A stretch of DNA of 63,967 nucleotides, counting the filler, from a bacterium (lineage in GTDB: Bacteria > JACRDZ01 > JAQUKH01): the NCBI GenBank assembly GCA_028719205.1. It is 4 parts of 4 records of this genome, joined end to end, with 100 filler letters (N's around TTAATTAATTAA, not from the genome) between each part and the next. Parts side by side here need not be neighbours in the genome. Positions count along the whole stretch, not along the records: positions 18,583 to 35,999 come from JAQUKH010000042.1; 3 more parts are not named here. One strand, given 5' to 3'. The translations under genes were made by a program, and so were the position numbers. Positions 18,483 through 55,080 of this stretch are shown one piece after another (position 1 is the first letter of the stretch; each line of letters begins with the position of its first letter). Under the pieces are notes generated by a model. That model had not been told where the DNA came from and did no database searches. It saw nothing but the letters and a program-made list of their open reading frames with translations.

Positions 18483-18582
18483 NNNNNNNNNNNNNNNNNN
18501 NNNNNNNNNNNNNNNNNNNNNNNNNNTTAATTAATTAANNNNNNNNNNNNNNNNNNNNNNNNNNNNNNNNNNNNNNNNNNNN
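18483..18582. other. Artificial contig-join spacer
   Basis: N run-TTAATTAATTAA-N run. Confidence 0.98.
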
Positions 18583-20496
18583 GTCTCTTTTAGGATCTCC
18601 CCCCGGCCCGCCGACATGCGTATATTGTTTGGAAGATTCCCAGGGATCATTCCTTTGACGATAATCATTAACATGCGCCGTGCCTAACCAGTCAGAATGT
18701 TCTTCCTGTTTGATCATTATATTTTCCGGCGTCACTTCCTTTCTATCTATGGTTACGTCACCTATATAATGAGAACCTAATCTCTTATTAAAAGAATCCT
18801 CCCCCGGAGCTTTGCTCTCAGTCGTATCCAACCCCTCAAAGTAATACACACTGGGATTGTGAGGATTTTTTGCCTCTGTATGACAAGCCTCGCAAAGCTC
18901 GGAATTATTATCCGGAATCGCCAGAATATAATTATCCTGCCCCGTGTGCGCCACATGGCAAGTCCGGCAGACTACTTTATCATTAACCAATTTTATTTTG
19001 GACCGGATATTTTCTATCAGTAAGCCTTCAGTATTTATTAACGAATCTCTGATAGCCATTCTAAACTTATCTCTGCTCATCATTTCAATATCTATCGGAT
19101 GGCTCACTCCCCAAACCTTTTGGGTACCCTCGACCTGTGTTCCCATTGCCTCACTGATAGGAGTTATAAAATTATTATAATCATTATATTGAGGTTTACG
19201 GCCATGACAATCCTCGCAAAAAGAATCCGAGGAACCTGACCGCAATATAGGAGTACCCTCCTTTGCTCCATGAGGGTCATGACAACTGATACAAACTAAA
19301 TATTCTCCTAACGTTCTTTCCTGATTAGCCGGCAAAGTATTCGGGTCCCCTGATTCTTCATAATCTACCCAGGTCATATTATCCGCTTCGTTATAAGGAT
19401 AATGAATAGAGAGCGAAGTTCCTTTTCCGGTTCTGAATATTTTTTCAGAATAAGGCGTTACATTTGAAGAAAAGTTATCGTTAGTCGGCGTGGGAAAGAC
19501 ATTTACCGGATGAGTATATTTATTTCCGGCAACATCAACCGCCGGCATCTCCGTGTGGCATTTTTCACATAAAAGGCTTTCTCCCGGAACACTGCCTGTG
19601 GTATCATTATTCACTACTAAAAGCGGGCCTACTCTTAACGGTGTTTTGTCAGCATACATCCCGTCCCGGGCAGGTTCCCCGCCATGAACCTGATGACAAG
19701 TCATGCATATCACGCCGCCCTGGGTATAAAAAGAAAGATGCCCGCCCAGCACGCCCTTCGGTTTAGTAAAGAGGGTGTCTAAAATAATCCCTATCCCTCC
19801 ATTTCTGGCATTTTCCTTTGAGACGGAAGCACCCACAGGATGAGTTCCTGATCCGGGAAATCCCCTGATACCATTATCAGCTTTTTTACCTGAATCCTCT
19901 CTCTGCTGATGACAGTATGAACAAAAATTCTGTACTGGCCCGTTATAATTTGACGCATTTCCCTCAGGCACAGAAGTATCATACATCATTGCCCTGAGAA
20001 AGCCTCCGTTAATATTATCATGAGGGTTATGACAGGTGGTACATTGCATACTTTTATCTTTTTCAGTCTCCGGCCATTCCTGAGCCGGAGTATTAACCAC
20101 CTCTCCAAGCCAATCGGTATTTTCAACATTGGGGGGTTCATTGCTTGTTGAACCAACCGGATGATTCGCCCGTTTAACATTAAACACAGTAAATATTTTA
20201 CTTGCCTTTGTTCCTGCTGAATTTGTTCCATGGCATGTATAACATATACGGGAAACAACACCAAAATCTCCGTAATCTTTTTCCCTGGGCCTGTAAGGCC
20301 ATACCTGAGAACCTAACGCGCTATGCGGGGTATGGCAATAAGCGCAAACGCCTTCTAATTCAACCCCTCCCGCCCACTCAGAATTAACCTCCAGATTATG
20401 CACCGTCTCAACTATTCCGCTGGCATGTATCAAAGACGGAGTTAACAAAAATAAAAAAATAATAAAATAGATTTTAAAATACAGTTTATTTTCCAT
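18583..20496 (-). CDS. Multiheme cytochrome c, paralog 3 (10 CxxCH visible, truncated by contig end; 14 expected)
   Basis: Signal peptide; paired CxxCHxxH/CxxCH units; colinear with 20486..22843. Confidence 0.9.
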
Positions 20497-22843
20497 CGAC
20501 TATTCCCTGTAAATGGCACCGGTTGCATAATGGCTGATGATCACGGGAAGGTGTCTTTTTATTAAACCAGCCTATGCCGCCCGGAGCGGAAACCGATGTT
20601 GAATCCCCGCCCGCCTCCATAATAAAAGCTCCTCCTAACGAATACGCGTTGTGCGCGGCGTGGCAGCTCTCACAAACCATTATTGGATTATTATTATTAG
20701 CTGTATCGGGATAATCCGCAGGCATGGTAAAACCTTTCAGATATAGCGAATTATAATATCCTACTGCGAATTTTGAATCTCTCGGATTTAACGGTTGGTT
20801 TGTGCGGGAAACAATTTTATTTAATACCGGATGGCTCCCTTCCGGATTATGACATGTCGAACAAAGTTGAGATTCAGTATTGGGAGTTAAAAGTAGCCTG
20901 CCTAATTTTTCCCCGCCATCAACGGCTAAACCTTTAGCCGCGCCGTGCGGGGTATGACAGGATTGACAGATGATCATCGTTCCGCCGTTACCGGATCTTT
21001 TTGGATCCGCGCCCGGCCCGCCTAAATGAGAAAACTGGTTAGAACCAGGCCATGAAGAGTTATAACCGTTATCAACATGAGCAGTTGCCAGCCAATCCGT
21101 TCTGTAACCGGTATCATAATAAGCCACATAAAAAGTATCATAAAGGGGACGGTCTTCCGGAACTACACTCCCGATATAATGGCTTCCCAGCCTTGGTAAT
21201 TCATAGGTTTCTTCCTTATTTACTTTCCCTTGCTTAACCGGCATCCATTCATTCGCCTTTCCATCGGGATAAACTTCACCCGGCCCCTCAAAATAATATA
21301 CACTTGGATTATGAGGTTCATCCGGATAGGTATGACAACATTCACATATTTCAGAATTTCTATCTGTTATTGTCAATAATCTTGAATTCATCGCTGAATG
21401 CGGGGAATGGCACGTCCTGCAGGTAATATAACCGTCTTTTAATCTGAGCGCGTTTTGAATATCTGTAATAAATATTCCTGGCGAATCATATATCTCTAAA
21501 GACTCTCTGATAGCCATCTCAAAACCATCTCTGTTCCTGGAGCGAAAAGATCCTGTACTTATCTTCGTTCCATCCTGCCAAATACTGATACCGACTGTAT
21601 CTACCGGATGATTTTCTCCCGCGACAGGCGCGCTATTATGACAATCTTCACAAAAATTATCTGACGAACCCTTTCTCAAGAGCGGAGTACCGGGCTTGGC
21701 GCCGTGAGGGTCATGACAACTCATACAAACAAGATATTCGCCCAACCCCCTCGCGCCTTTACCTTGATGCGTATTTGGCTCTCCGGATTCCTCGTAATTT
21801 ATCCATGAAACCGGAGGGTAATTAATTGCCAGGGTATCACCTGAAGAGGAAATATTATCATCACTTCTTGTTCCCGGAGGATATCTGTCCAAAGGATGGG
21901 AAAAATAAGCAGTATCTTTCATAAAAGGAGTTTTGCCATGACAGGCTTCGCATAACAGGCTTTGCCCTCCGCCCCCGGTTGGAATATCCGTAGAATCCGG
22001 TTGTGATTTTGTCGTATCATTATTAATCACCAAAAGCGGGCCTACCCTTAAAGGAGTACCGTCAGCGTATAAACCGTCTTTGCTTGCCGGCACGCCATGA
22101 GGGCTGTGGCATGTAACACATGTTACCCCTCCGGTTGTTCCATAAGCCAAATGGCCGCCTAAGACCCCAAAGGGTTTCGCGAAAATAGCGCTGTCAATAA
22201 AAACACCCGGAAGATTTTCATTGGTTATATTCGCTCCAACCGGATGCGTTCCTTTATTCTCTTTGCCTTTTAAACTGCTTTCTCTTTTTTGATGGCAGTA
22301 GGAACAAAAATTCTGAAGTGTATTTTCGTAATTATAACCGCCCTCATCAGCAGAGGTATCAAACAGCAAGGCATTCAGAAAACGGCCGAACCTGTTATCG
22401 TGCGGGTTATGGCAGGTAGAACATTCTATATCAGTCGTATCCGCGGCGTGAGGCCAGGTACTTGCCAGGAATCTATTATTCAACCAGTCTGTTTCATCAA
22501 CGTTGGGTTCAATATTACTTGCGTTTACAACAGGATGGTTATCCTTTTGTAAATTAAAAACAGTAAAAGATTTATTCGCCTTTGTTCCGGCGCGGTTGGT
22601 CCCATGGCAGGAGTAACACAAATTTCCGATCTTTCCGAATTCTTTTGATTCCATTTCATACCGCCATAACACAGGACCCTTAGAGCTGTGAGGGACATGA
22701 CAATACGCGCAAACGCCTTCAAAATCGCCTCCTCCGGAAAATTGCGCGTTTAGTTCCTGGTTATGAACAGTTTCAATGATACTCGCTTTAACATTAAAAT
22801 TTAAAAATATTATAAGTAAAAAAGCAAGTAACCATTTTTTCAT
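20486..22843 (-). CDS. 14-heme cytochrome c (7 paired-CxxCH units), paralog 2
   Basis: Signal peptide; 14 CxxCH counted. Confidence 0.92.
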   Translation of the reverse strand: MKKWLLAFLLIIFLNFNVKASIIETVHNQELNAQFSGGGDFEGVCAYCHVPHSSKGPVLWRYEMESKEFGKIGNLCYSCHGTNRAGTKANKSFTVFNLQKDNHPVVNASNIEPNVDETDWLNNRFLASTWPHAADTTDIECSTCHNPHDNRFGRFLNALLFDTSADEGGYNYENTLQNFCSYCHQKRESSLKGKENKGTHPVGANITNENLPGVFIDSAIFAKPFGVLGGHLAYGTTGGVTCVTCHSPHGVPASKDGLYADGTPLRVGPLLVINNDTTKSQPDSTDIPTGGGGQSLLCEACHGKTPFMKDTAYFSHPLDRYPPGTRSDDNISSSGDTLAINYPPVSWINYEESGEPNTHQGKGARGLGEYLVCMSCHDPHGAKPGTPLLRKGSSDNFCEDCHNSAPVAGENHPVDTVGISIWQDGTKISTGSFRSRNRDGFEMAIRESLEIYDSPGIFITDIQNALRLKDGYITCRTCHSPHSAMNSRLLTITDRNSEICECCHTYPDEPHNPSVYYFEGPGEVYPDGKANEWMPVKQGKVNKEETYELPRLGSHYIGSVVPEDRPLYDTFYVAYYDTGYRTDWLATAHVDNGYNSSWPGSNQFSHLGGPGADPKRSGNGGTMIICQSCHTPHGAAKGLAVDGGEKLGRLLLTPNTESQLCSTCHNPEGSHPVLNKIVSRTNQPLNPRDSKFAVGYYNSLYLKGFTMPADYPDTANNNNPIMVCESCHAAHNAYSLGGAFIMEAGGDSTSVSAPGGIGWFNKKTPSRDHQPLCNRCHLQGIVDGK

Positions 22844-22883
22844 TGGAAAAATTGATCCCTTTTTACGATCATAAGATTATTAA

Positions 22884-23852
22884 TTATTTTTTGAATTTCC
22901 AGACGGATATTCTATGCCTCAAAAGTTCTGAAACATAAACACGGTCTTTTCTTGCGGCAATACCGCCAACCGTAGTCAAATCTATACGGCCGCCCTTTTC
23001 ATCTGAAAGCGCGAAAAGGAATTTACCCTCCCGGTCAAAAACCTGAATATTCCCTTTTGCGATATCAGCAACATAAACGCGGTCCATTTCATCAACAGCA
23101 ATACCTGATACCTGTCCAAAAAGCCCCGCGACATCGCCCTGTCCGCCGAATTCCGCCATGAAATTCCCGGTATTGTCAAACTTGTAGATCCGGCTGATTA
23201 TTCCGCACGCCACATAAACTTCATCATGGCTGTTGATCGCTATATAAGCGGGCCTGACCAGCCCTCTTGGTTTGCCGCCTATTTCAAAAACAGTTACAAT
23301 AAATTTATAATTTCCATTTTTGTCGTGAACTTCCAGCAACTGATCATCAACGTCCGCCACCCAGACATTTCCCTGGCTGTCCACGGCAACGTCGTTCGCG
23401 CCTGTAGGGCTGTCTTCTTTTATTCCCTGCGGGCCGCGATGCCGGCCTGCTCTCAATTCAAATTTACTTACAAACTCGCCGGCAGGAGTAAAGATCTTCA
23501 CCTGATTTAACATCGGGTCAGCTACATAGATCCTTCCCAGTTGATCGGTCCCAACGCCGTTAGGATCGAGAAATTCCTCGTCTTCCCTGCCTTCTTTCCC
23601 GAACGCTAAAACAAACTCACCCTTATCATTAAAGACCTGTATTCGCCGGTTAACCGTATCGGCGATATATACCATTCCATCCGGAGCCACCGCGACATCC
23701 TGCGGCTGGTTAAACTGGAGCTCCTCTTGTCCTTCCAGGGTATATACAAACAAGGTAGGCGTTGTTAAAAACTTTGTCTGGCAGAAAACCTCCGCGGCAA
23801 GTATAAACACTAATATAAAAACAGCAAATAAACTTTTATTTATAATTTTCAC
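22884..23852 (-). CDS. NHL-repeat 6-bladed beta-propeller, exported
   Basis: FNQPQDVAV.PDG.VYIADT.NRRIQVF-type repeats. Confidence 0.9.
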   Translation of the reverse strand: MKIINKSLFAVFILVFILAAEVFCQTKFLTTPTLFVYTLEGQEELQFNQPQDVAVAPDGMVYIADTVNRRIQVFNDKGEFVLAFGKEGREDEEFLDPNGVGTDQLGRIYVADPMLNQVKIFTPAGEFVSKFELRAGRHRGPQGIKEDSPTGANDVAVDSQGNVWVADVDDQLLEVHDKNGNYKFIVTVFEIGGKPRGLVRPAYIAINSHDEVYVACGIISRIYKFDNTGNFMAEFGGQGDVAGLFGQVSGIAVDEMDRVYVADIAKGNIQVFDREGKFLFALSDEKGGRIDLTTVGGIAARKDRVYVSELLRHRISVWKFKK

Positions 23853-23873
23853 AAAAATACCATTTAAATGAAA

Positions 23874-24764
23874 TTAATGCATTGTTCCTCTTAATTTTCC
23901 GGTCTTTCTGTCATACTTTTCATCAATACCCCTGATACTATTCATTGCAACTTCAACATATTTGCTTTTCGGATATGTCATGATCAGTTTTTTATACTCT
24001 TTTTGCGCCTGGTCAAAATCATTCAGGCCGTCAACGCTATAAAGTTTGGCAATTTTGAACTGAATTTCATCCGCCAAATTACAACTCGGATATTTTTCCA
24101 AGATCTTCCTGGCCATTTCAATTTTCTTTACAGGATCCTTTTCATTATTCATATCCGCGTAAAGAGACAGGGGTTTCCTGTCAAAATCAGAATTTTCCTC
24201 CAGAAATTTTATTCCATCCTCGGCCAGGGACGCCGCTCTTTTTTCAAGTGATAATTTTCCATTTTTATATCTCTCTACTATCTGTTTATAACTTAATATC
24301 GCGTTATCGAAATCTTTTTGCAGGCTGTAACTGTCTGCAATTTCAACATACACTCTTATAACATTTTCGCTTTTAGGATATTTTTTTATAAATAAATTAA
24401 AAAGATCTATTGCTTTTTTAAAATCTTTTCTTCCTCTATAATTATATTCCGCAAAAGATAAAAATTCGTCTTCTTTTAACCTGAAGTTCTTATCCAATTG
24501 AAAAACCTTTTCAAAATCAAATATCGCTTTTTCGTCATCGCCTACCTTTTTATAGTTCAGCGCCCTGTAGAATAATACCCTGGCATTTTCAGGATCAGCC
24601 TTTAGGATTTTATTAAATACAACCATGGAACTGTCAAACTCTTCCCTCGCGAAAAGATCCAGACCGTCAATTAACTCGCTATCCTGCGTTTTTTTGCATC
24701 CAAGCCCGCAAAGAGAAACAAATAATAATACCAAAGAAATTTTAATTAAATTGTGTTTTTTCAT
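23874..24764 (-). CDS. TPR lipoprotein (BamD/CpoB-like repeats)
   Basis: GLGC lipobox; FIKKYPKS and LIMTYPKS repeats; start at ATG 24764 after AAGGA. Confidence 0.8.
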   Translation of the reverse strand: MKKHNLIKISLVLLFVSLCGLGCKKTQDSELIDGLDLFAREEFDSSMVVFNKILKADPENARVLFYRALNYKKVGDDEKAIFDFEKVFQLDKNFRLKEDEFLSFAEYNYRGRKDFKKAIDLFNLFIKKYPKSENVIRVYVEIADSYSLQKDFDNAILSYKQIVERYKNGKLSLEKRAASLAEDGIKFLEENSDFDRKPLSLYADMNNEKDPVKKIEMARKILEKYPSCNLADEIQFKIAKLYSVDGLNDFDQAQKEYKKLIMTYPKSKYVEVAMNSIRGIDEKYDRKTGKLRGTMH

Positions 24765-24772
24765 AGTTTTCC

Positions 24773-26446
24773 TTAAAATGAATGACAGGTATTGCAAAGC
24801 TCATCCTGAGACATTCTCCACATTTTTCCTTCCACTCTTTTATTTTTTTCGCTTTTTAAAAGTCCTTCCTGATGTACCTGATGGCAGGTATTGCATGTAA
24901 TATTCCCCGCATTATCCAGCGGCAGCAAATTAGTATTTACATCTTTTAGGTCCTTCAAGCTTTTAATTTTTACAGTTATTATCTTACCATTGGCTACCGT
25001 TTGCCTTTCATTCGCAAATTTAACCAAATGTCTCGGCTGTGTTCCATCCATTTTTGTTCCCGGGTGATCACGGTCGGCATGGCACAGTATACATAAAAAA
25101 TTAACCTCCCCGATCAAACCGGGATTTTTCCCGCCTTCAACCAGTTTTTCCGCCGGTAACGAATGACAGAATTTACAAGTGGAAGCAATCTGATTTCCCT
25201 TATCGTCCAGCATTTTATGGGGATTTGTTTTTTCCAATTCAGCCCTTATATGGCATTTATAACAAATTTCATTTTTCTTATCATAAGGACCGCCTATCAG
25301 ATAATTCGGGTTTTTGTCCGCGATATTTTCTTTTGGTTTTTCCGCCCGGCATTCAAATTTTCTTTCATGGCACGTTAAACACGTAACTTTTCCATCCACC
25401 AATGGCAAATCTTTTGACATTTTTGTAATTTTTGAATTAGGGCTTTCTCCTACATTTAAAGGATGATGGTCTCCCTTATCCTGCGACGCTTTATGGCACC
25501 AGTTGCACATCGCTACATCATTCCCGAATTTAATAAAGGCATCCGCCCCTTTAGCACCGGCCGCAGGGATCTTATCATGGCAGGAAAGGCAGAACAACCC
25601 TTTTTCATGAGGATTTATCTCTTTTGATTTTACGGCAAAACTAATATAATCAGGCCTTAAAATATACATGGTTCCTGTATTGCCATGCCCATTATGACAG
25701 GTAGCACATGTCATCGCCCCGTCAATAACAGGCAGAGTCGTCGGGAATTCATTACGGATAGCTTTATCAGCAAACGGATTAACCTGTATAAAATGCCCGC
25801 CCTGCGCCGATCCATGGCAAAAATCGCACAGCTCGATTATATCCCTTTTTATAGTCTCTTTTACAACATCCTTTGCCTTTTTCGGGTCACTGCTGTGGCA
25901 AAAACCGCATAATTTCTCATCATTTACGTGAGGAGATCTTTTAGTGAACTCTTCTCCATGGCACTTATTACAAAGATCCAATCTCTTTTTTAAAATAGGC
26001 TGGCCGCCTGCCTCATCTGAAAACCCGCGCAATAAAACATTTGAAGCTATTTCCACATGAACTAAATGACAAGTACTGCAGACAACCTTGCCTTCCGAAG
26101 CACCTGATTTCCCCAACGGCAGAAAATCCGGGATCTTTACATCGGCGCTTGGAACAACATTAACCTTATGATGTTCAGCCCCTTCATGGCAGCTCCTGCA
26201 TAACTCAACAACATCATTGTTCGGCATAAGAAGTTTAGCATCTTTATCATCCGGTTTCGGCCTTGTTAAATGGCACGACTCACAGCCTAACTGCATATGA
26301 ATGTTAGGGGTGATCTGGGGGCCTGTTTCGGCTTTTTTCCCCGCTGCGGAATCCAAACCTCTTTTTTTCCTCTGCGCAAAACTGGTGGTTGAAGAAACAG
26401 ATAAAACAAACACTAATAATAAAAGACATAAATTTATTTTTTTCAC
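24773..26446 (-). CDS. 15-heme cytochrome c
   Basis: GTG start, signal peptide, 15 CxxCH counted. Confidence 0.9.
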   Translation of the reverse strand: MKKINLCLLLLVFVLSVSSTTSFAQRKKRGLDSAAGKKAETGPQITPNIHMQLGCESCHLTRPKPDDKDAKLLMPNNDVVELCRSCHEGAEHHKVNVVPSADVKIPDFLPLGKSGASEGKVVCSTCHLVHVEIASNVLLRGFSDEAGGQPILKKRLDLCNKCHGEEFTKRSPHVNDEKLCGFCHSSDPKKAKDVVKETIKRDIIELCDFCHGSAQGGHFIQVNPFADKAIRNEFPTTLPVIDGAMTCATCHNGHGNTGTMYILRPDYISFAVKSKEINPHEKGLFCLSCHDKIPAAGAKGADAFIKFGNDVAMCNWCHKASQDKGDHHPLNVGESPNSKITKMSKDLPLVDGKVTCLTCHERKFECRAEKPKENIADKNPNYLIGGPYDKKNEICYKCHIRAELEKTNPHKMLDDKGNQIASTCKFCHSLPAEKLVEGGKNPGLIGEVNFLCILCHADRDHPGTKMDGTQPRHLVKFANERQTVANGKIITVKIKSLKDLKDVNTNLLPLDNAGNITCNTCHQVHQEGLLKSEKNKRVEGKMWRMSQDELCNTCHSF

Positions 26447-26510
26447 TTTTTACCGCCTTCTTTATTTAAGCTTTTATAGCTTATTTAATATTTTTTTTAT
26501 CTTTTTTTTC

Positions 26511-26555
26511 AAAAAGGGGGCTCAATTGTTTCTTATTATAAAACAATTGAGCCCC
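26511..26555 (-). terminator. Rho-independent terminator after the 950-aa cytochrome
   Basis: GGGGCTCAATTGTTT...AAACAATTGAGCCCC 15-bp stem followed by a T run on the minus strand. Confidence 0.8.
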
Positions 26556-26582
26556 GCAATTTAAGTTTAACTTAGTACCTTA

Positions 26583-29435
26583 CTATTTTGCACCATACTT
26601 ATGACAGAGACGGCATGTCGCATTATCGTCTCTTTCAGGTATAGTCGGCACCTTATTCCATAAACCAGTTGTACCAAAAGTACCGCTTATAGTCGCGCTA
26701 TCACCTTCCAGTATCATCGCGCCCATCTTTGAATCGGCATTATGTACTGTATGGCAACCGTCGCAATTCATTCTGCCTCCCGCATAGTTAGCCGGGGCAA
26801 TTTCCTGTCCATTATTATAGGCAAATTTACTTGTAGTAATATTTACCGCATCACCTTCCAGTTTAGTAATCTTATATGAAAGATTACCCGAATCAAATGC
26901 CGCACCTGATGTATCTGCGCTCATTAGATGCGTAAATGTGGTATCACCCACAGTTACCTCTGGAATATGGCAACGTTTGCACATATATGAATCTACGTTA
27001 GGAGCTAACAGTAATCTGGATATCTTAGGATTATCTGCTACACCAACACCACTGTTATGAGCAACATGACATCCCTGACAGCTAATTACATATTCACCAG
27101 TTGCCGTAGTTCCATAATGGCCCTTCTGGCCTGAACCTGAACTGTCTGTGCTAGCCCAGTATCTTCCGATAAATCCAGCTGTGTCTAACCATCTATCTTT
27201 GGCCTCACCTGTACCGCCAACTGAACCTCTTCTGCGGTCTATCGTAGTTAATATCGCACCAGAAGCACCGTTACGGTCTATATTTCTTTCACCTAACCAG
27301 CAGCTATCTGCTGTATTTATTGTTGGCCGTGTACCTGAGAACTGGCCAATGTAATGACTGCCTAATCTTGTACTATCAGTTCCTGCAGCAGTTATACCAT
27401 ACGCATTAGGTGCGGAGGTAGTATCTCCAGCTGAAGTATATCCCCTCTTGTTTGTATAATTCCACCAAGGTGTACCGGTAGCACCGGCGCCTTCAATGTA
27501 GTAATAGCTTGGGTTTGCATCTGTTTCACCATTTGCTGACCCGCTGCCTCTACCATATTTCCAGGCAGCCGCCTTACTTCCACCCAATCCGCCTGTACCA
27601 TTTCCTGATACGTAAACAGTATCTCCCGGAGTATGGCAGTTAACACATATCTGAGAGAATGGAGTCTGATAATCGGCTAACAGAGGTTTTTCAACACCTT
27701 TATGCGCCTTATGACAGCTCCAGCATGAAATGTACTCAGCAGTTGTACCTTTATTAAACGTTTTTAGACCAGCTCTGTTCGGGAACTTAATGTTTCCATT
27801 ACCTTCCGCATCACCTGTTACCAGGGTTGCAGCTGGGCCTGACGGATGTGTAGTCCAATCTGTGAAATACGCTGTGTCAGCGCCTGTTCCAACAGCTACG
27901 TCGCTATGACAACCATCACAGAAAGTTGTATCACTTCTACCGGCCAAATTACGTTCCATACCTCTCTTTAAGATAGGGCTGTTTATGGCCGCCTGATGCG
28001 GTTCATGACAGCTTAAACAGGTTAAGTACTTACCATCTGTTGTCCTGTCTGTATTTTGAGTATGGGTCGGATTACCGGTAACACCCCTTATTCCACCGGA
28101 TTCTCTGTATTTCAACCATTGACTTGGCGGATACCTAATATCCATTGAACCAAATTCCGGTTCTGACGCTATGTTGTCAAGTGTTCCAACACCCACTACG
28201 CCACTTGTCTCCGGCGGATATTTATCTACCGGATGAGCAAACGCGTTCGTAGATTGTAAAGTATTGTCCAAATCAGGTGTCAAACCATGGCACCATTCAC
28301 AAAGGATATTCTCTTCGTGTGTTGCCGGCAAGACAAACACTGTCTCACTCTTAAATGGAAACTCACTCTTAGTCGGCGCAAACCCAGGCGCAGCGTCTGC
28401 GAAACTCCAAGCATTATCAACAGCTAACAACGGGCCTACATGTAATTCTGTAGTAGCCGAATCATGGTAGGTATCATCGTCTGTGTGCATTACACCGTGA
28501 GGCATATGACAGCTCTGGCATATCAAATCATTGCCGTAAGTCCTTGCACCCAGAAAAACAGCTGTAGTACCAATGGCCCAACCGGAATCCCAAATAGCTC
28601 TACCGGCTCTGTTGCCTGATACTAAGTTTGTCGAACCATAAAAATTTCTGAACATATAAACTTCATCTCTTACCGCTCCAGGATTACCTGTAAATGAAGC
28701 AGTATCGGCACGACCCGAGGAAACCGGATGAGTACCATAACCACCAATGTTATTCGAGCTTGTATCAGCTTCACGATTTATATGGCAATAAGAACAAAAA
28801 TTCTTATTATTTGCAGGGCCATTCTCATTATATACCGGAGCCCTTAAGAATTTTCTTTTCGCAAGCCCATATACTGCATCTGATCCAAATGCGATCGGAT
28901 TCCAATCATGAGGATTGTGGCAAGAAGAACATTCTATGTCCTTGTCAGGTTTCGCGCCGGCAGCCCAGCTGCTGGTCCATGGCCAATCATTAGAGATCGC
29001 GCTGTCCAGATTCGTATTCTGGAGTGTTGCGCTCTGGTGCGAGCTTCTTGTCCCGAAAACCGGATGTGAATCCATGTGAGTATTTTTCAGCGGTGTAACT
29101 AATGGATCTAATGTTGCAAAAATCTCATTATTTACGTCCATATTAGGATAGTTCAAATAACCGCTACCCACATGACACTTTGAACATAAGGAACCTACAA
29201 CACCATATTTTAATTTTTCTTCTTCGTTCGCCAATGGAAACAACCTGTCACCTTTGGATGAATGCGGTACATGACAATATGCACATATACCCGCTTTATC
29301 CTTGGAAGTGATGTTGAGCCAAGAGACGAGATCATGCGGACTTCCCGTGATCGCCGCAGATACCCCGCTTGCTTTCAGCAGGCCCAAGCCCACAATCAAA
29401 AGCAAACTTACAAGTAGCTTCTTTGTTACGTTCAT
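26583..29435 (-). CDS. 14-heme OmcE-like cytochrome c, paralog 1 (950 aa, G/S/T/A-rich)
   Basis: Signal peptide; ITGSPHDL..ICAYCHVPH..LCSKCH..HP..ECSSCHNPH..FLR..FCSYCH follows the OmcE tetraheme pattern, then five more diheme units. Confidence 0.9.
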   Translation of the reverse strand: MNVTKKLLVSLLLIVGLGLLKASGVSAAITGSPHDLVSWLNITSKDKAGICAYCHVPHSSKGDRLFPLANEEEKLKYGVVGSLCSKCHVGSGYLNYPNMDVNNEIFATLDPLVTPLKNTHMDSHPVFGTRSSHQSATLQNTNLDSAISNDWPWTSSWAAGAKPDKDIECSSCHNPHDWNPIAFGSDAVYGLAKRKFLRAPVYNENGPANNKNFCSYCHINREADTSSNNIGGYGTHPVSSGRADTASFTGNPGAVRDEVYMFRNFYGSTNLVSGNRAGRAIWDSGWAIGTTAVFLGARTYGNDLICQSCHMPHGVMHTDDDTYHDSATTELHVGPLLAVDNAWSFADAAPGFAPTKSEFPFKSETVFVLPATHEENILCEWCHGLTPDLDNTLQSTNAFAHPVDKYPPETSGVVGVGTLDNIASEPEFGSMDIRYPPSQWLKYRESGGIRGVTGNPTHTQNTDRTTDGKYLTCLSCHEPHQAAINSPILKRGMERNLAGRSDTTFCDGCHSDVAVGTGADTAYFTDWTTHPSGPAATLVTGDAEGNGNIKFPNRAGLKTFNKGTTAEYISCWSCHKAHKGVEKPLLADYQTPFSQICVNCHTPGDTVYVSGNGTGGLGGSKAAAWKYGRGSGSANGETDANPSYYYIEGAGATGTPWWNYTNKRGYTSAGDTTSAPNAYGITAAGTDSTRLGSHYIGQFSGTRPTINTADSCWLGERNIDRNGASGAILTTIDRRRGSVGGTGEAKDRWLDTAGFIGRYWASTDSSGSGQKGHYGTTATGEYVISCQGCHVAHNSGVGVADNPKISRLLLAPNVDSYMCKRCHIPEVTVGDTTFTHLMSADTSGAAFDSGNLSYKITKLEGDAVNITTSKFAYNNGQEIAPANYAGGRMNCDGCHTVHNADSKMGAMILEGDSATISGTFGTTGLWNKVPTIPERDDNATCRLCHKYGAK

Positions 29436-29444
29436 TTCCCCCTC

Positions 29445-30560
29445 CTATTTTGTTTTTTTGGTCAAATATCGAAAAACCTTGACGTGGGATCCTTTTCTAT
29501 CGTTACAACTTATATAAATTAAATTATCACGATCAATACTTATAGCATTAAGTATCGGAACATTAAGCTTTGCACCGTTCTCATCGCAAAGCGCGTATAG
29601 AAAGGTGCCTTCTTTTGAAAATACCTGTATTACACTATTCCCCCTGTCGCTTACATAAAGCCGTTCTAATTTATCGATCGCCAGTCCGTTTGGCGCGTTA
29701 AACCCTCCAGCCCCGTCACCCATATATCCAAAACTGCCTAAATAATTACCCTTGGCGTTAAACCTATGCACCCTGCAGATCAAAGGGTCTATCACATAAA
29801 CTTCATCCAAACTATTAAACTTGGGATGCCCCGGCGTAAGCACAGCCAATTCCTCTCCCTTTTTATTTTTAAATTTAGTGATCTGGTATTTATACTTGCC
29901 GTTCATATCGTTGATCTGTATTCTGCCATTTCCGCTATCGGTTACATAAATATCCCCGCGGCTGTTAACAGCAACACCCGAAGCCCCCTGGCCGGGCAAA
30001 TTTTTCTGTAAACTATCCTGTAATCTGACGGAAAAAAGATATTTCCCTTCAGGGCTGAATATCTTAACTCCATTTTCACTCCAATCCACCACATAAATAT
30101 TGCCTTTTGCATCAGTCGTAATATCCATCAAGCCGCCGATTTTAGACACATTTTCCGCATCATATTCTTTCCTTCTTTCTCTTTCCTCTTCGGGGTCAGC
30201 ATTAGTCCTGACCCTATAACCGGCTTTTTGTCCCCCAAAACGAAATAATAAATCCCCCGCTTGGTTAAACGCCAATATCTCACGCGTCGATGAATCTGCG
30301 ACATAAATAACTTTTTGATCCGGAGAGAAAACAACCTGGGCCGCCAGCGAGAACATTCCAATCCCAATTTCCTTGACTAATTCCACCGCCTGATAACTTG
30401 CCGGAATAACCTTGGCTTCTTCATCGGGATTTGTAACAATAATGCTTGTCTCGGTTAAAGCCGCACCACCTGTTGTTTCCTGAGCGAAATTGGCCACGCT
30501 GAAAACAGCCGTGATAAAGCCAATAACCAAAAGAAATGAAACAATTTTCTTTAAAAACAT
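29445..30560 (-). CDS. NHL-repeat beta-propeller, exported
   Basis: GVAVNSRGDIYVTDSGNGRIQ, FNAPNGLAID.L.RLYVSDRGN. Confidence 0.9.
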   Translation of the reverse strand: MFLKKIVSFLLVIGFITAVFSVANFAQETTGGAALTETSIIVTNPDEEAKVIPASYQAVELVKEIGIGMFSLAAQVVFSPDQKVIYVADSSTREILAFNQAGDLLFRFGGQKAGYRVRTNADPEEERERRKEYDAENVSKIGGLMDITTDAKGNIYVVDWSENGVKIFSPEGKYLFSVRLQDSLQKNLPGQGASGVAVNSRGDIYVTDSGNGRIQINDMNGKYKYQITKFKNKKGEELAVLTPGHPKFNSLDEVYVIDPLICRVHRFNAKGNYLGSFGYMGDGAGGFNAPNGLAIDKLERLYVSDRGNSVIQVFSKEGTFLYALCDENGAKLNVPILNAISIDRDNLIYISCNDRKGSHVKVFRYLTKKTK

Positions 30561-30647: not shown

Positions 30648-31061
30648 TTAACTTTCAGCTTCATCTCTTGGTTGTTTTCTTCTTTCCACACCTTCCACCC
30701 TGGGTTCCATACTTTTAATAATATAAGCGGAAAATATATACGCGTCATAAATGCTGAAAGCGAGAAGTCCTAAATAAAGCGCGAGGGGAAGGTAACGGGA
30801 TACTCCTTGAGTTTTCGCGTATTCATACGCGATCGGGCCGACAAGATTCAGGTCATTTGCCTGGCGCAGGGCGTCATTATAATCCTGCTGTAAAAAAATG
30901 AACCATGTCAATAAGCCAATGGCCATAAGGATCATTATCAAAGACCTTATAACCTCCCTGTTATACGCCTGTCCCGCACCCGGGAAAAACAAGGACGCAA
31001 GCGCCGCGATAACCGGGCTTTTCTTTATTTTGCCTCGTTCCAGCCTCTGTCTCAATATCAT
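30648..31061 (-). CDS. Small membrane protein (TM2/DUF5683-like)
   Basis: KSPVIAALASLFFPGAGQAYN ... SIYDAY. Confidence 0.75.
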   Translation of the reverse strand: MILRQRLERGKIKKSPVIAALASLFFPGAGQAYNREVIRSLIMILMAIGLLTWFIFLQQDYNDALRQANDLNLVGPIAYEYAKTQGVSRYLPLALYLGLLAFSIYDAYIFSAYIIKSMEPRVEGVERRKQPRDEAES

Positions 31062-31142: not shown

Positions 31143-32321
31143 CTATTCTTTTTTCTGTTCCATATTAGGATGGCAGCTCGGGCAAAGTTTTTCCACGGGT
31201 TTCCAAAATATGAATTTATTATCCGATCCATGCGGATTATGACAGCTGTAACAGACTATATTTTCTTTTTCATCAAGGAAGATACCTTTTTCAACCGCTA
31301 CCGGAGATCCGCTTGTCGGCTGCAGATCTGACGGATGCTTATGTTTTTTTATTTTCTCAATTATAGGAATATGACATTCTGTTTCCACGCATAACTTCGC
31401 GGGAGGCTGTCTTAAATTAAAAAGTTCGTCAGATTCATGGGGATGGTGACACCCGAGACAATCCCCGTCAGAAATAGCTTTATGAGGAACCAGAATCGCC
31501 CCGTCCTCAACAAAACTCTCCTTCCCGTTTTCATCTTTTATTGACTTCCATTTAACTTTTTTATCTAAATGGCACAAATAACACATCTTCGCCTTTCCGT
31601 CTTCCCACAGGACAAAATCATTTGTTGTCCCATGAGGGCTATGACATCCCATACAAAACAGTTTTTTAACCGCCGTATGCGCATTTGCCTTCATCGAACC
31701 TATTCCCTCATGGCAGGTCACACAAATCTGCCCTCCACCGTCAACTACCACCTTGTATCCGTTATTATATCCTTCCGGATCATGACAAGCGAGGCATGCG
31801 CCTTCACCGGCAGGCCCGTGCATATAGCCCCATTTCATAATATCCTTTTTATGGCATAAACTATAACACATCTTCCTGTCGGATTTCATAGGATCCATCG
31901 CGTGGCATTCTATACATTGTCCGTCTTTTTTACCGGTATGAAATATATAACTGCTGAATCCAGCGGGCCCAGTTGAATCATAAGTTTTTAAAACAAAAAA
32001 TTTATAATTTTTCAGGCTAAAAACCTCTAATTGTATTTTTTCTTTTACATCAATATCGCTTACCTCGATCTTATTTAATCCGTAATTTAAATTTAACGGA
32101 AAATGGAAATTCCCGTCGCGCGGATTCACAAAAGGCCCTTCTTCACCGTTAAGCCAGTAACGCAGTTTTTTAGCGTCTGTCTTTCCTACAATAAAGACCG
32201 TATTTGTAAAAATATAAATTTTTTTGTCAGGAGAAATAATCGTAATAGCAGCTTCGGATCTTGTCGGTAACGGAAAGAAATATATGCAGAAAACAAACAA
32301 AAATAATAAATTTTTTTTCAC
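31143..32321 (-). CDS. Ig-like domain plus ~10-heme cytochrome c (8 CxxCH, 1 CX3CH, 1 CX4CH)
   Basis: LNYGLNKIEV Ig motif; HGP..G.CLACHDPE repeats; CYSLCH, CVETECH. Confidence 0.88.
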   Translation of the reverse strand: MKKNLLFLFVFCIYFFPLPTRSEAAITIISPDKKIYIFTNTVFIVGKTDAKKLRYWLNGEEGPFVNPRDGNFHFPLNLNYGLNKIEVSDIDVKEKIQLEVFSLKNYKFFVLKTYDSTGPAGFSSYIFHTGKKDGQCIECHAMDPMKSDRKMCYSLCHKKDIMKWGYMHGPAGEGACLACHDPEGYNNGYKVVVDGGGQICVTCHEGIGSMKANAHTAVKKLFCMGCHSPHGTTNDFVLWEDGKAKMCYLCHLDKKVKWKSIKDENGKESFVEDGAILVPHKAISDGDCLGCHHPHESDELFNLRQPPAKLCVETECHIPIIEKIKKHKHPSDLQPTSGSPVAVEKGIFLDEKENIVCYSCHNPHGSDNKFIFWKPVEKLCPSCHPNMEQKKE

Positions 32322-32352: not shown

Positions 32353-33072
32353 TTATTTGATCTCTTTGAGAAAAAACTTATCCTTGCCGCCGTGAGAATC
32401 ATGGCAATAAGAACATTCTTCTTTGTTGCTGTTCTTTAAATTAGCAAGATGTTCTGTTATTGACTCTTCTTCGTGGCACATATAACATATCTTGTTTTTA
32501 TTCTCGCGTAAAAATCTGACTTCTATTGAACCATGGGGATCGTGGCAGGCTGTACACGCGCCAGAACCTATGGGGCCATGAACAAATTTATTTTTTTCAA
32601 AACTGTCATGGCAATTAAAACAAATTACTTTTGAAACATCAACGGAAGGATATTTATCTTTCAATTCTTTGGTATGGCACTCAGAACATTCGTTATCCAG
32701 GATAGGCGCGTGTATTAAAACTTTCACATAATCACTTTGCGTGTTTTTTTTTTCTTTCTCGTATAAAATATTTATGGTCTGGGTCTCCGCTCCATTCACA
32801 ATTTTCAGTTCATTCACCCCTGAATTCAGCTTGATCTTATCAGTGAAAATATTTCCCTTTTCCAGCTTAATTGTATTAATTGAAGAATTATTTAACATTA
32901 ATTTTAATTCTTTATCACTTCCGGTATATTTACCTATAACAGGCAAATATTCCTGATCAAGTTCGAGCTTTTCGCCTTTAGGAAAAATAATATCAAGATT
33001 TTTGCCGCAAACACCATTACAATATATTAAGACATAAACTGCCAATACAATCCAAAAAGATCTTGTTTTCAT
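32353..33072 (-). CDS. Ig-like domain plus pentaheme cytochrome c
   Basis: LNSGVNELKI; 5 CxxCH. Confidence 0.88.
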   Translation of the reverse strand: MKTRSFWIVLAVYVLIYCNGVCGKNLDIIFPKGEKLELDQEYLPVIGKYTGSDKELKLMLNNSSINTIKLEKGNIFTDKIKLNSGVNELKIVNGAETQTINILYEKEKKNTQSDYVKVLIHAPILDNECSECHTKELKDKYPSVDVSKVICFNCHDSFEKNKFVHGPIGSGACTACHDPHGSIEVRFLRENKNKICYMCHEEESITEHLANLKNSNKEECSYCHDSHGGKDKFFLKEIK

Positions 33073-33097: not shown

Positions 33098-34336
33098 TTA
33101 TTTAGTCCGCTTTTGTAATTTTTCGATTATTCCCCTGTATTCATCGCTGGCTTTCTTTAATTCAACTAACGCCTCTTCTTTATTTCCTTCTTCAAGTAAA
33201 ATTTCACCCAGGTCATTATAGGCGTTCGCAAGGTTCGGATGCACTTCCCGCTTCTTTTTCATTCCCGCGAACAAATCTTTGCCTACATCCGCGAATAGTG
33301 AAATAGTTTTCTTGAATTCTGCCTTTGCGTCCTCTTTTTTGCCCTGTTTTCTATAAACCGCTCCCAACCCATAATGCGAGTCGCCTGATGCCGGATCTAA
33401 CTCCAGCGCTTTCTTAAATTCAGCAAAGGCATCATCAGGCATATTTTTTTTAAGGTTAAAAAAACCGTAATCAATATGAGGCTGGACTTCGTCAGGATTG
33501 ATCGATATCGCCGCGCTATATTCCACCAAAGCCTCTGCCATATTCCCTTGTTTATCATAAATGTTTGCCAGCATAATATGTGGTTTAACATAATTCGCGT
33601 CTGCCTCCGCGGATTTTTTCAACTTTATGACAGCGCTGTCAAACTCACCGTCTTTCAGGAACTTTTCCGCCATATTCATTTCCATCGCGGCATCTTTATT
33701 AGGCTTAAAAGTCCTCTTTATCGACATTTGCTTCGACTCATGAACCGCGGCTATCTCAATACCTAACGCCTTTTTCACGTTATCCTTAACATTATCCTCA
33801 CCTTTAAGAGGGCTCCACATAGGCATTAAATAGTCAATCTTGCCTTCTTTACTGATGATCATAAAAGATGGGAACGAAACAACTCCATACAATTTATATA
33901 CTGTCTGTTTTTGGTCTAAAAGAATAAGAAACGGATATTTTTTTTCTTCGAGCAATTTATTTATTTCCGCGATTTCAGTTTCGTTTACATCGCGGGGTTC
34001 CGGCGGAGTATAAACAGCTAAAACCTCCAAACCATTCTCTTTATTATACCAGCTATAAAGCTGAGCCAGCACATCCAGTTCTTTCACACTATCTTTAGAG
34101 GTCAGGTTCCAAAAACAAACAGCTACTGTATTTTTACCCTGATAATCAGTAATCGCGACACTTCCGCCTTTAAGATTACTTAAACTGAAATCCAATGCCT
34201 TTTCTCCCACACTCGCGTTCTGGATAGCATACGCGTTGTTAATGGCGTGTACGGAAGATGCAAAATAAACAGAGACAAATAAATTAAATATCAGTATCCA
34301 GAGATAATAAAACTTCATTTCATTTTTTTTCATCAT
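33098..34336 (-). CDS. Exported TlpA/redoxin-like plus TPR protein lacking CxxC
   Basis: GEKALDFSL.NLKG..V.ITDYQGK..VAVCFWNLTSKDS..EL; YGVVSFPS; C-terminal TPRs. Confidence 0.8.
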   Translation of the reverse strand: MMKKNEMKFYYLWILIFNLFVSVYFASSVHAINNAYAIQNASVGEKALDFSLSNLKGGSVAITDYQGKNTVAVCFWNLTSKDSVKELDVLAQLYSWYNKENGLEVLAVYTPPEPRDVNETEIAEINKLLEEKKYPFLILLDQKQTVYKLYGVVSFPSFMIISKEGKIDYLMPMWSPLKGEDNVKDNVKKALGIEIAAVHESKQMSIKRTFKPNKDAAMEMNMAEKFLKDGEFDSAVIKLKKSAEADANYVKPHIMLANIYDKQGNMAEALVEYSAAISINPDEVQPHIDYGFFNLKKNMPDDAFAEFKKALELDPASGDSHYGLGAVYRKQGKKEDAKAEFKKTISLFADVGKDLFAGMKKKREVHPNLANAYNDLGEILLEEGNKEEALVELKKASDEYRGIIEKLQKRTK

Positions 34337-34347
34337 ATCTCCTAATG

Positions 34348-35999
34348 TTAATACCAATTTTCTTCCGGTACAGGATTTTCACGGTCATAATCCCTGGGTT
34401 TATGACAACCAACTACACACCTTCCGCCTGTAGGTGTTTTTGTAAATTCAACTTTGTAATTCCAATACGGGCTAAACGGCACTTCTAAACGAATATGTTT
34501 TTCCTGAGTAGAAGCATGTACCTCATGGCACGCGCGGCAGGTACGCCCTTTTTTCTTATTAACATGTATATAATGCATATTCTTTTTCCCGTTCCTGAAA
34601 TCTGTTAAGGTCGCGGTAAAAGGATCCAGAACAACTGTTTTCTTATGGCATCCGAAACACAGGTCATATTTACTCTCTTCAAACGCGTCATAAAACGGTT
34701 TTGGGAAATCTTTCTGCAATATCTTTGTGAAATTAGAGCCATGCGGATTATGGCATGCTACACAATCGCCTTGTTTGACAGGGCCATGTTTTGAAGGTTT
34801 ATTAAATTCAATTTCTTTATCCTGGTGGCACATATAACACAATTTTTCGCCTTCGCGTAAAAGTTGATATTTGGTATCTGACGCGTGCGCGTCATGGCAT
34901 TTACTGCACTGGCCTTCAGCCACCGGAGGATGTTTCTCTTTGTTAGCCGCGAATTGTTCTTTCTTTTCTTTATGGCACATATAACATAAACTCGCCCCTT
35001 CATCCTTTAACTGATATTTAAAATCAGAGGTATGAGGATCATGGCAATCACCGCACTTTCTCTCCGCCACTGGTTTATGCACAAATTCTTTTTGCATGTC
35101 TTTGCCCTTAGCTTCATGACAGACAAAACAAAGTTCCGCGGGCGATTTTTCCAGCTGGAACTTATTCGGGGAGGCATGAGGGTTATGACATACGTTACAA
35201 TCGCCCGCGGCTACCGGGCCATGCACAAATTTCATATTAGCCTTGTTCCTTTTATGGCACATATAACACAATTCCGCGCCCAAACCGCGCAGTTGAAATT
35301 CCTGAGCTCCACCGTGAGGGTCATGACAGGCATTACAATCGCCGCCGCCGACCGGGCCATGAACAAACTGCTGGGCAAAATCCATTTCTTTATCGGTATG
35401 ACAACGGTAACATAAAGCGCTTCCCGTAACTACCAGAGAAAATTTATTAAAAGTTCCATGCGGGCTGTGGCAGCCTATACATGCCCCGTCACCTACCGGG
35501 CCGTGACTGTATACAAAGGCTTCAACACTTTTGTCAGTATGGCAGCCATCTGCCGGATTAATACAGGAGATCGTGCCTCTTAATAACCTTCCGGGATAAA
35601 CCCCTTTACTTTCCGATAAATCATGGCAGTCGTTACATATCTCCGCGCGGCCTTTGATCGGTTTATGATCAAAAAACTTTTTAAAGTCTCTCTGCACAAA
35701 ATCAGGAATAACAGTAGCGTCTTTTTTATAAAATATTTTCACGGAGGCTGTTCCTACGTCTTTATCTTTCGCAACGATCTTGATCTCATTCATTCCTTCC
35801 TTTAAAGCCACCGGGCCAAGAAATGTTCCTTTTAAAACATCAACTAATTTTGTAGGAGAATCATTTACCAATCTATTAACCTGAGTTACTGACGAGTCAT
35901 GGATCAAACCTACAATTCTCATCTCAGGAAATTCATATATAATATTTGTATTAGGAATCAGGATTTCAACATTAGAAGAAACTTCTGCATGACTATTTA
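34348..35999 (-). CDS. ~16-heme cytochrome c (14 CxxCH, CX6CH, CX3CH), 5'-partial
   Basis: Frame open to the contig end; HGPV..G.CxxCHxPH repeats; C-terminal FRNG..N.H..HV...KGRTCRACH...GG.CVVGCH. Confidence 0.9.
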
Positions 36000-36099
36000 N
36001 NNNNNNNNNNNNNNNNNNNNNNNNNNNNNNNNNNNNNNNNNNNTTAATTAATTAANNNNNNNNNNNNNNNNNNNNNNNNNNNNNNNNNNNNNNNNNNNN
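36000..36099. other. Artificial contig-join spacer
   Basis: N run-TTAATTAATTAA-N run. Confidence 0.98.
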
Positions 36100-39909: not shown

Positions 39910-39998
39910 CCCTTTATAACTTAATAATTTTCCCTCCACCATTTAAACTTATTGTTTAATATACCGAAAAGAAACATAGCAATTAAAATTAAATAAAA

Positions 39999-50295: not shown

Positions 50296-50308
50296 ATATT
50301 CACTCCCT

Positions 50309-53110: not shown

Positions 53111-53210
53111 NNNNNNNNNNNNNNNNNNNNNNNNNNNNNNNNNNNNNNNNNNNNTTAATTAATTAANNNNNNNNNNNNNNNNNNNNNNNNNNNNNNNNNN
53201 NNNNNNNNNN
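53111..53210. other. Artificial contig-join spacer
   Basis: N run-TTAATTAATTAA-N run. Confidence 0.98.
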
Positions 53211-55064: not shown

Positions 55065-55080
55065 AATATTTTAAATGTCC

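Follow-up and report, generated by a model that had tools for sequence, protein, structure and literature searches.

Three paralogous multihaem cytochromes with OmcE-homologous heads and their NHL propeller genes in an operon from an unclassified bacterium

The described systems closest to the locus reported here are gene clusters of extracellular cytochromes. The cluster of the tetrahaem cytochrome OmcE includes a propeller gene, its minimal set consisting of two multihaem cytochromes, two propeller lipoproteins, OmcE itself and a large barrel protein; likely nanowire-forming OmcE homologues were picked by the presence of barrel and propeller, and nanowire export and assembly is treated as an open question (PMC13712944). 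Within OmcE filaments one interfacial haem needs a histidine from the neighbouring subunit (PMC9473688; PMC13712944). The Uet cluster of Candidatus Tenderia electrophaga encodes a tetrahaem cytochrome (UetA), a peptidyl-prolyl isomerase (PPIase; UetB), a barrel (UetC), NHL proteins (UetH/I) and an undecahaem cytochrome (UetJ) (10.1101/2022.05.06.490989), and the porin–scaffold–cytochrome clusters termed EET1 in peat Acidobacteriota contain OmcE-like cytochromes with 8–13 haems (10.64898/2026.05.27.727921). Here, a stretch of 63,967 nucleotides from assembly GCA_028719205.1, referred to as the window, was examined for an operon that encodes three paralogous cytochromes, two of them complete with 14 haem-binding CxxCH motifs, together with two NHL propeller proteins. 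An earlier appraisal of the same DNA, the original prediction, had taken the portion at 18583..30560 to be a candidate new nanowire system.

The window is made of four contigs placed end to end and separated by three identical spacers (18483–18582, 36000–36099 and 53111–53210), each consisting of 44 N, TTAATTAATTAA and 44 N, so that any gene touching a spacer is truncated by the edge of the assembly and not by biology. The second contig (18583–35999; 17,417 bp) is cut at both ends and is filled by the operon, the genes of which all lie on the minus strand, are tightly packed and account for 80 CxxCH motifs in total; 18583..30560 is the downstream two thirds of this single-strand operon of at least 12 genes. 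The two complete paralogs comprise 950 aa (26583..29435, minus strand) and 785 aa (20486..22843, minus strand), and translation bore out the arrangement originally described for them, namely 14 CxxCH motifs set out as seven pairs, with motifs 1, 3, 5, 7, 9, 11 and 13 reading CxxCHxxH and the even-numbered ones plain CxxCH. They are colinear and 28% identical. The third paralog (18583..20496, minus strand; 638 aa present), which is colinear with and 44% identical to the 785-aa protein, starts 11 bp inside the end of the 785-aa gene, shares the NHL gene of the latter, and was correctly seen as cut at 10 haems, since the gene runs into the spacer at 18582, with loss of the C-terminal portion. The nearest relatives of full length (P0007, 838 aa; P0008, 811 aa) share 78% identity with it and contain 14 CxxCH motifs each, indicating that the count of 10 reflects the assembly edge as opposed to natural shortness. 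None of the three contains CxxxCH, Cx4CH or CxxCK. That the paralogs are exported and free of a membrane anchor, as had been proposed, is consistent with the one N-terminal hydrophobic stretch that each possesses, which is the sole basis for the assignment, no further stretch being present; the 14-haem proteins have no lipobox.

Homology searches returned about 90 further proteins of 668–1027 aa with 13–14 CxxCH motifs and the same N-terminus, from Nitrospirota, Deferrisomatales, Thermodesulfobacteriota, Candidatus Firestonebacteria and Candidatus Desantisbacteria, with Gemmatimonadota represented among the loci described below. In a family alignment of 94 sequences, headed by the 785-aa protein, all 14 CxxCH motifs are invariant, which argues that the 14-motif pattern did not arise by chance. 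A further 14 histidine columns outside the motifs are conserved, 12 of them at 98–100% and two at 86%. The 785-aa protein has 15 candidate distal histidines, and the 14 originally counted in the 950-aa protein are consistent with the alignment, being made up of 13 of the 14 family columns (the fourteenth holds arginine) plus the protein's own +3 histidine on haem 11. The conserved histidines are enough for bis-histidine ligation of all 14 haems. This bears on the notion that the proteins are catalytic multihaem enzymes, such as nitrite, sulfite or hydroxylamine-type oxidoreductases, instead of wires. Weak profile matches to NrfA, NrfB and MccA (E 1e-8 to 3e-5) point in that direction, but they cover paired-CXXCH stretches only, and with all 14 motifs of the CxxCH type, a conserved candidate distal histidine for each, and no CxxCK or open-site motif, an enzymatic function seems highly improbable.

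The Pfam model PF09699 (Paired_CXXCH_1) matched above its gathering cut-off (100.2 and 49.8 bits versus 20.6), and no curated Pfam or NCBIfam model names the 14-haem family beyond it; scores for the DmsE/MtrA decahaem model TIGR03508 (57.8 and 38.3 bits versus 192.2) and the GSU2203 decahaem model NF041028 (34.4 and 25.3 bits versus 325) fell short of the respective cut-offs. A protein atlas search with the 950-aa protein gave generic Paired_CXXCH clusters alone, with recognition below the stated mark, and a description of the family was not found in the literature searched, the coverage of which was partial. Two sets of candidates were set aside. The Pcc periplasmic cytochromes of 338–400 aa (PMC4245776) and Sideroxydans PCC3, which surfaced as 14-haem matches, are unrelated, and Geobacter OmcG and OmcH, considered as possible members, were seen by inspection of the sequences in a PMC11492766 supplement to have N-termini without an OmcE-like head.

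The relationship to OmcE became apparent at the level of the family. When submitted alone to a search of the PDB, the 950-aa sequence retrieved nothing at E ≤ 10 and the 785-aa sequence gave weak matches (9yuq, E 0.0026; 7tfs, E 0.022); since single sequences barely detect OmcE, a family profile was needed. The profile matched OmcE of G. sulfurreducens (7tfs_A) with E 1.5e-22, profile positions 11–172 covering OmcE residues 6–232, such that the alignment spans the protein from signal peptide to last residues with all four CxxCH motifs and all four distal histidines, and it matched 9yuq_N, from the OmcE bundle of D. soudanensis, with E 2.2e-20. A second profile was made from 48 tetrahaem proteins picked up in the searches, among them P0201 and L044:3159-3902, which match OmcE singly (E 7e-24 and 2e-25). 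Comparison of profiles with hhalign placed the whole of this tetrahaem profile on the first ~200 family columns (probability 99.9%, E 6e-34) or on the head segment alone (99.9%, E 5.5e-37). Against the tetrahaem profile, the 785-aa and 950-aa proteins scored E 2.6e-52 and 1e-50, respectively. On these sequence profiles, the first four haems (residues 1 to ~205) are a module homologous to the entire OmcE subunit, and the description of the proteins as OmcE-like was in this respect well founded. In the 785-aa protein the head (22229..22843, minus strand; residues 1–205, haems 1–4) carries H27, H52, H103 and H148, which align with the four OmcE distal histidines and are invariant (H7, H32, H83 and H128 in the numbering of the head fragment), followed by H200; the N-terminal histidine, in an [ST]xH[DN] motif, is 98% conserved in the family. 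Five further paired-CXXCH units come after the head, and within them haems 7–10 resemble OmcE as a quartet once more, though less strongly (98.4%, E 4e-15). The last four haems were considered as another such quartet and rejected, since only a 41-column paired-CXXCH unit could be aligned. The match between OmcS and the family profile (E 2e-12) is gappy, places haems 7–12 on the six OmcS haems, and is given little weight.

Comparison of predicted structures, the test suggested with the original prediction, gave no significant match. AlphaFold2 (AF2) models built without haem were of modest confidence (predicted local distance difference test [pLDDT] 63 and predicted TM-score [pTM] 0.65 at full length; 71.6 and 0.69 for the head). 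Foldseek ranked OmcE (7tfs) first for the head model, albeit with E 0.2 and a TM-score of 0.34 and hence no match at E ≤ 0.001, and for the full-length model returned 6qvm as the best match (E 0.22), with OmcE at rank 6 (E 5.7). The term OmcE-like therefore rests on profiles and not on a fold match.

The features of the two protein ends are pertinent to the possibility that the 14-haem proteins polymerise head-to-tail into extracellular filaments like OmcE, the N-terminal histidine of one subunit completing the last haem of the next, with the paralogs serving as major and minor subunits and the propeller capping or chaperoning the head until assembly. The head is a full OmcE homologue that keeps all four distal histidines, including the N-terminal one at 98%, and the interfacial haem of OmcE is itself completed in trans (PMC9473688; PMC13712944). 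The family alignment shows a conserved histidine in cis after every haem pair except the last. Moreover, the tail that follows the last CxxCH is 8 and 5 residues long in the two complete paralogs, has a median of 3 residues in the family (≤15 in 92 of 94) and 2 in the OmcE-like tetrahaems (≤15 in 45 of 48), versus 65 in relatives with 10 or 11 haems (≤15 in only one of 65); the propeller partner and the tandem paralogs also resemble omcS and omcE clusters. Against this, the histidine arithmetic is loose, given the two columns at 86% and the 15 candidates in the 785-aa protein, a 14-haem chain could span an envelope without polymerising, and no barrel or porin gene is found in the three syntenic operons described below; barrel and propeller together have served to pick likely nanowire homologues (PMC13712944). 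Polymerisation is accordingly judged unlikely. Were it to occur, the operon would encode a nanowire of 14-haem subunits, the largest known, with a head-to-tail interface inherited from OmcE, possibly three mixed paralogs, and a propeller that grips the head to prevent polymerisation before export, a picture that likewise has to be regarded as doubtful.

Both propeller proteins were assigned with Pfam NHL (83 and 72.5 bits versus a cut-off of 20) and also match the six-bladed propeller model DUF5128, and an NHL profile matched solved NHL propellers with E ~1e-80. The proteins are 33% identical. The gene for the 371-aa protein (29445..30560, minus strand; Pfam NHL E 1.5e-20) ends 9 bp upstream of the 950-aa cytochrome gene, and that for the 322-aa protein (22884..23852, minus strand; E 7e-24), the partner of the 785-aa cytochrome, ends 40 bp upstream of the latter. 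The earlier statement that an NHL gene lies directly upstream of each cytochrome locus consequently holds for the two cytochrome sets, with the third paralog sharing the NHL gene of its neighbour. Given the tight coupling of the two genes and the presence of the N-terminal head in all of these cytochromes, binding of the propeller to the head was examined by complex prediction, using residues 25–322 of the 322-aa NHL protein, residues 21–205 of the 785-aa cytochrome, an alignment for each, and four haems. The median score was 0.82, whereas the best of three controls scored 0.00. Among solved complexes 116 of 157 reach this mark, as do 2 of 215 mismatched pairs, a calibration that is rough in the present case owing to the use of own alignments and a riding ligand. 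Contacts agreed between runs by at least 61% and the pLDDT of the partner was at least 87. All six blades of the propeller contribute predicted contact residues, and those of the cytochrome are residues 46–51 and 60–99, mainly within the loop between haem 2 and the distal histidine H103; the top face of the propeller is thus predicted to dock on the loop after haem 2 of the head (residues 81–99 of the 785-aa protein). A memorised structure is an unlikely source of the score, since the best 60 of the 151 matches that the NHL profile gave in the PDB include no NHL–cytochrome complex.

Gene neighbourhoods were surveyed by a single scan of genome contigs with one peptide pattern, from which 330 relatives were confirmed and 80 kept, at 79 loci; the survey is biased towards the motif of the pattern, and six loci only have 14-haem genes. 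At 63 of the 79 loci the best family match is immediately preceded by an NHL gene, the two in most cases overlapping by 4 bp, and three of the remaining 16 have the cytochrome gene at the edge of a contig. Together with the complex prediction, these counts indicate that the link between NHL gene and cytochrome gene is general, in keeping with the original prediction. Two loci, L002 (an unclassified metagenome-assembled genome, MAG) and L007 (Candidatus Desantisbacteria), match the operon one gene at a time, beginning with its first cytochrome and reaching as far as the TPR lipoprotein, where the operon ends; the order kept is 14-haem GSU2203-like cytochrome, thioredoxin–TPR protein, 5-haem and 8-haem cytochromes, DUF5683 protein, NHL protein, long 14-haem cytochrome, 15-haem cytochrome and TPR protein. 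The 14-haem gene is preceded by an NHL gene in L002, L007 and L005, the last by a profile search of the upstream open reading frame (ORF), while in L006 there is no NHL gene upstream of the 14-haem gene and L001 lies at a contig edge. L003 has a complete NHL gene in front of a second cytochrome, which is probably frameshifted, and NHL-like fragments alone before the 916-aa gene. The former arrangement (L003:9935-13436, a Nitrospirota MAG) consists of an NHL gene followed by two overlapping cytochrome ORFs with 5 and 12 CxxCH motifs, and resembles a single long OmcE-headed cytochrome interrupted by a frameshift or sequencing error. Those 14-haem loci that are not syntenic have stand-alone thioredoxin-like and PPIase genes downstream.

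Most of the surveyed loci hold not 14-haem genes but a widespread relative with 10 or 11 haems. Loci from a betaproteobacterial MAG, Sulfurimonas, Oryzomonas and Desulfuromonas combine the NHL–cytochrome pair with further cluster genes, not all of which occur everywhere: an OmcE homologue, a SurA-like PPIase, a second NHL protein, a 590–690-aa protein without Pfam match, and GSU2203-like and pentahaem relatives. The tetrahaem subunit, the PPIase and the putative barrel of ~590–690 aa are present in L031, L044, L011 and L020. Clusters in which the pair is joined by the OmcE homologue, PPIase and second NHL gene are the published Uet or minimal OmcE cluster. The pair itself, a 10/11-haem cytochrome with OmcE-like N-terminus whose start is overlapped by the NHL gene by 4 bp, occurs within L008–L079 (for example L031:8970-11743 and L044:7843-10922) in Acidobacteriota, Verrucomicrobiota, Planctomycetota, Bacteroidota, Calditrichota, Campylobacterota and Desulfuromonadia, and is far more widespread than the Uet and OmcE papers cited above suggest. 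In addition, relatives with 22, 16 and 18 CxxCH motifs follow NHL genes at L023:2693-5377, L037:9644-11644 and L065:9623-11968, respectively, from which it appears that OmcE-headed cytochromes form a series of haem numbers; in L023 and L037 the relative is followed by a homologue of the 15-haem protein of the present operon.

The remaining genes of the operon are also rich in cytochromes. In order of transcription it comprises the GSU2203/DmsE-like cytochrome with 14 CxxCH motifs, the thioredoxin–TPR protein, the 5-haem and 8-haem cytochromes, the DUF5683 protein, the 371-aa NHL protein, the 950-aa cytochrome, the 15-haem cytochrome, the TPR protein, the 322-aa NHL protein, the 785-aa cytochrome and the third paralog. 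The first of these (34348..35999, minus strand) has a reading frame open into the spacer, its 5' end being cut by the contig end, and has orthologues of 574–596 aa in L002 and L007 (E ~1e-201). It is followed by a 419-aa protein (33098..34357, minus strand) with a thioredoxin-like domain of the AhpC/TSA, ResA-like type and TPR repeats, orthologues of which are found in L002 and L007 and which is probably a cytochrome-maturation helper; a 239-aa pentahaem cytochrome (32353..33072, minus strand) with relatives in the OmcE/Uet-type clusters L011 and L020; a 392-aa cytochrome (31143..32321, minus strand) with an N-terminal immunoglobulin (Ig)-like domain, eight CxxCH motifs, one CxxxCH and one Cx4CH, and orthologues in L002 and L007; and a small DUF5683 membrane protein assigned by Pfam (30648..31061, minus strand; 137 aa, two hydrophobic stretches), which occupies the same place in L002 and L007. 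Between the 950-aa gene and the second NHL gene lie a 557-aa cytochrome with 15 CxxCH motifs (24773..26446, minus strand), which has weak MtrA/DmsE/NrfB-like NCBIfam matches below cut-off and is directly downstream of the long cytochrome also in L002 and L007, and a 307-aa Pfam TPR protein (23874..24797, minus strand), probably a lipoprotein, with weak YfiO/BamD-like matches and orthologues in L002 and L007 that have lipobox-like N-termini (LSGC/FTGC).

Taken as a whole, the operon most likely encodes an electron-export chain of the extracellular electron transfer type. Within such a chain, the reading favoured here, to which a probability of roughly 55% is attached, is that each 14-haem protein is a single-chain wire that pairs 1:1 with its NHL propeller and by default does not polymerise. 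Each protein would be exported by Sec, with haem attachment perhaps aided by the thioredoxin–TPR protein of the operon, and would then be taken up by its dedicated six-bladed propeller, the top face of which is predicted to engage the loop after haem 2 of the head. The cytochrome might subsequently act as one insulated linear haem wire of ~10 nm, a length extrapolated from the D. soudanensis filament at 3.1 nm for every four haems (21.7 nm for seven subunits; PMC13712944), taking electrons from the co-encoded GSU2203/DmsE-like 14-haem, 8-haem, 5-haem and 15-haem cytochromes and passing them towards or beyond the cell surface.

Several observations weigh against this reading. The rod shape and the length of ~10 nm are assumed by analogy, Foldseek comparison of the full-length and head AF2 models with the PDB gave no match at E ≤ 0.001, and some of the sequence features of the head and C-terminus suit a polymer no less well than a monomer. 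Unlike most of their relatives, the NHL proteins of the operon have no clear lipobox, which leaves an anchoring role for them uncertain. Finally, a tetrahaem OmcE-like gene, a PPIase gene and a barrel or porin gene are absent from the contig (which is cut at both ends) and from L002 and L007, and hence the three operons point neither to a route across an outer membrane nor to a compartment; nor is there an ORF that fits the 590–690-aa barrel in the 17.4-kb contig, L002 or L007.

In an alternative reading, the proteins would be a periplasmic relay or electron store (capacitor) that conveys electrons from quinol oxidation at the inner membrane to another acceptor, with the NHL protein as a folding chaperone only and no extracellular role at all. 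Sec signals are the only export signals seen, these proteins have no lipobox and the operon contains no secretion-system gene or barrel, and the best matches of the co-encoded cytochromes, though below cut-off, are to the periplasmic or envelope proteins DmsE, GSU2203 and NrfB. However, the nearest solved relatives by profile, namely OmcE, the 6qvm S-layer undecahaem and OmcS, are extracellular or surface proteins; related clusters with the same NHL–cytochrome pair carry an OmcE homologue and a Pfam-less protein of ~600–690 aa at the place of the Uet barrel; and among the conserved products of the operon is a BamD/YfiO-like TPR lipoprotein. A purely periplasmic role is for these reasons considered rather improbable, and the single-chain wire within an electron-export chain is retained as the preferred reading.

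With regard to the source organism, GlyA encoded on the fourth contig is 80–92% identical only to proteins from MAGs labelled as unclassified 'bacterium' and at most 68% identical to those of many phyla, and the closest relatives of the cytochromes likewise come from unclassified bacteria. The GC content is 30–44%. The organism is thus unlike Geobacter, as had been supposed, and the four contigs presumably belong to one bin. The glyA gene and purine genes follow Rnf genes (RnfA/E-like, RnfD and RnfC) at 53300-57390 (minus strand), representing ordinary core metabolism. Further along, at 62083-63967 (plus strand), is a gene cut by the window end for a secreted protein of more than 628 aa that combines NosD/right-handed beta-helix and Ig-like domains with five CxxCH motifs, an unusual haem-bearing beta-helix. 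The third contig has, in a row at 38668-42534 (plus strand), a GGDEF cyclase with a Tll0287-like domain, a PAS protein and an HD-domain (HD_5) protein, which together probably constitute a cyclic di-GMP signalling module, and, at 50023-50602 and 51758-53107 (both minus strand), a HigB-like toxin with a helix-turn-helix antitoxin adjoining a DDE transposase that ends at the contig edge.

The analysis defines a 14-haem family that is distributed over several phyla and has a complete OmcE module at its N-terminus, and shows that, in many phyla, OmcE-headed cytochromes are coupled at their start to an NHL gene. If real, the contact between propeller and head would give the propellers of nanowire clusters a role, and it constitutes a specific and testable prediction; if it is also true that the grip blocks premature polymerisation, an explanation would be at hand for the propeller genes found in OmcE, OmcS and Uet clusters. 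Should the 14-haem form polymerise, the range of nanowire subunits would grow from 4–8 haems to 14. The operon also points to a capacity for electron export in an unclassified lineage without a cultured relative.

Comparison with the known systems places the operon among them. OmcE, as represented by 7TFS of G. sulfurreducens and 9YUQ of D. soudanensis, is covered in its entirety by the ~205-residue head and likewise ends a few residues past its last CxxCH; in contrast to its four haems and ~220–230 aa, the proteins here have 14 haems and 785–950 aa, there is no barrel gene nearby, and fold similarity is not significant. At 668–1027 aa the family also lies outside the size of the OmcE family (~200–260 aa, four or five haems). 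For the undecahaem S-layer cytochrome of Carboxydothermus ferrireducens (6QVM), a single-chain surface wire, the profile match is the third best (E 6.9e-18) and the Foldseek match of the full model the top non-significant one, but the former is limited to paired-CXXCH stretches in the middle of the profile and the context is that of a monoderm S-layer. In the omcS companion (osc) operon of G. sulfurreducens, OscE and OscF are presumably propellers and OscG a porin. That operon is comparable in having proposed accessories for folding (OscH) and secretion (OscE, OscF and OscG; PMC13194489), whereas OmcS itself is a hexahaem of another sequence family with a loose profile match (E 2e-12).

The closest resemblance is to the clusters of the Uet, OmcE and EET1 kinds. 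The propeller gene of the OmcE and Uet clusters has its counterpart in the two NHL genes, and in the Uet cluster and the equivalent minimal OmcE cluster of Desulfuromonadia an NHL gene similarly lies directly upstream of a long OmcE-headed cytochrome; GSU2203/DmsE-like and pentahaem cytochromes are shared with L011, L020 and L044. The long cytochrome of those clusters, however, has 10–11 haems and a tail of ~65 residues, and the UetJ-like form (10–11 CxxCH, ~550–730 aa, long tail) is distinct from the proteins with 14 CxxCH motifs and tails of 8 and 5 residues; their OmcE homologue, PPIase and 590–690-aa Pfam-less protein have no counterpart in the 17.4-kb contig. The EET1 clusters have in common with the present operon OmcE-like cytochromes with more haems than OmcE, and many of the survey loci come from the same kinds of genome, but they contain porins and their cytochromes have 8–13 haems as opposed to 14. 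To speak of a new nanowire system, as the original prediction did, is therefore an overstatement, since clusters that unite NHL proteins with OmcE-like or 10/11-haem cytochromes have already been described (10.1101/2022.05.06.490989; PMC13712944; 10.64898/2026.05.27.727921), and the claim is weakened further by the lack from the operon of the tetrahaem subunit and large barrel that those authors regard as marks of nanowire clusters. Rather, the operon is a variant of the known OmcE/Uet/EET1 kind, in which the tetrahaem subunit, barrel and PPIase are absent and the 14-haem form is present in three copies.

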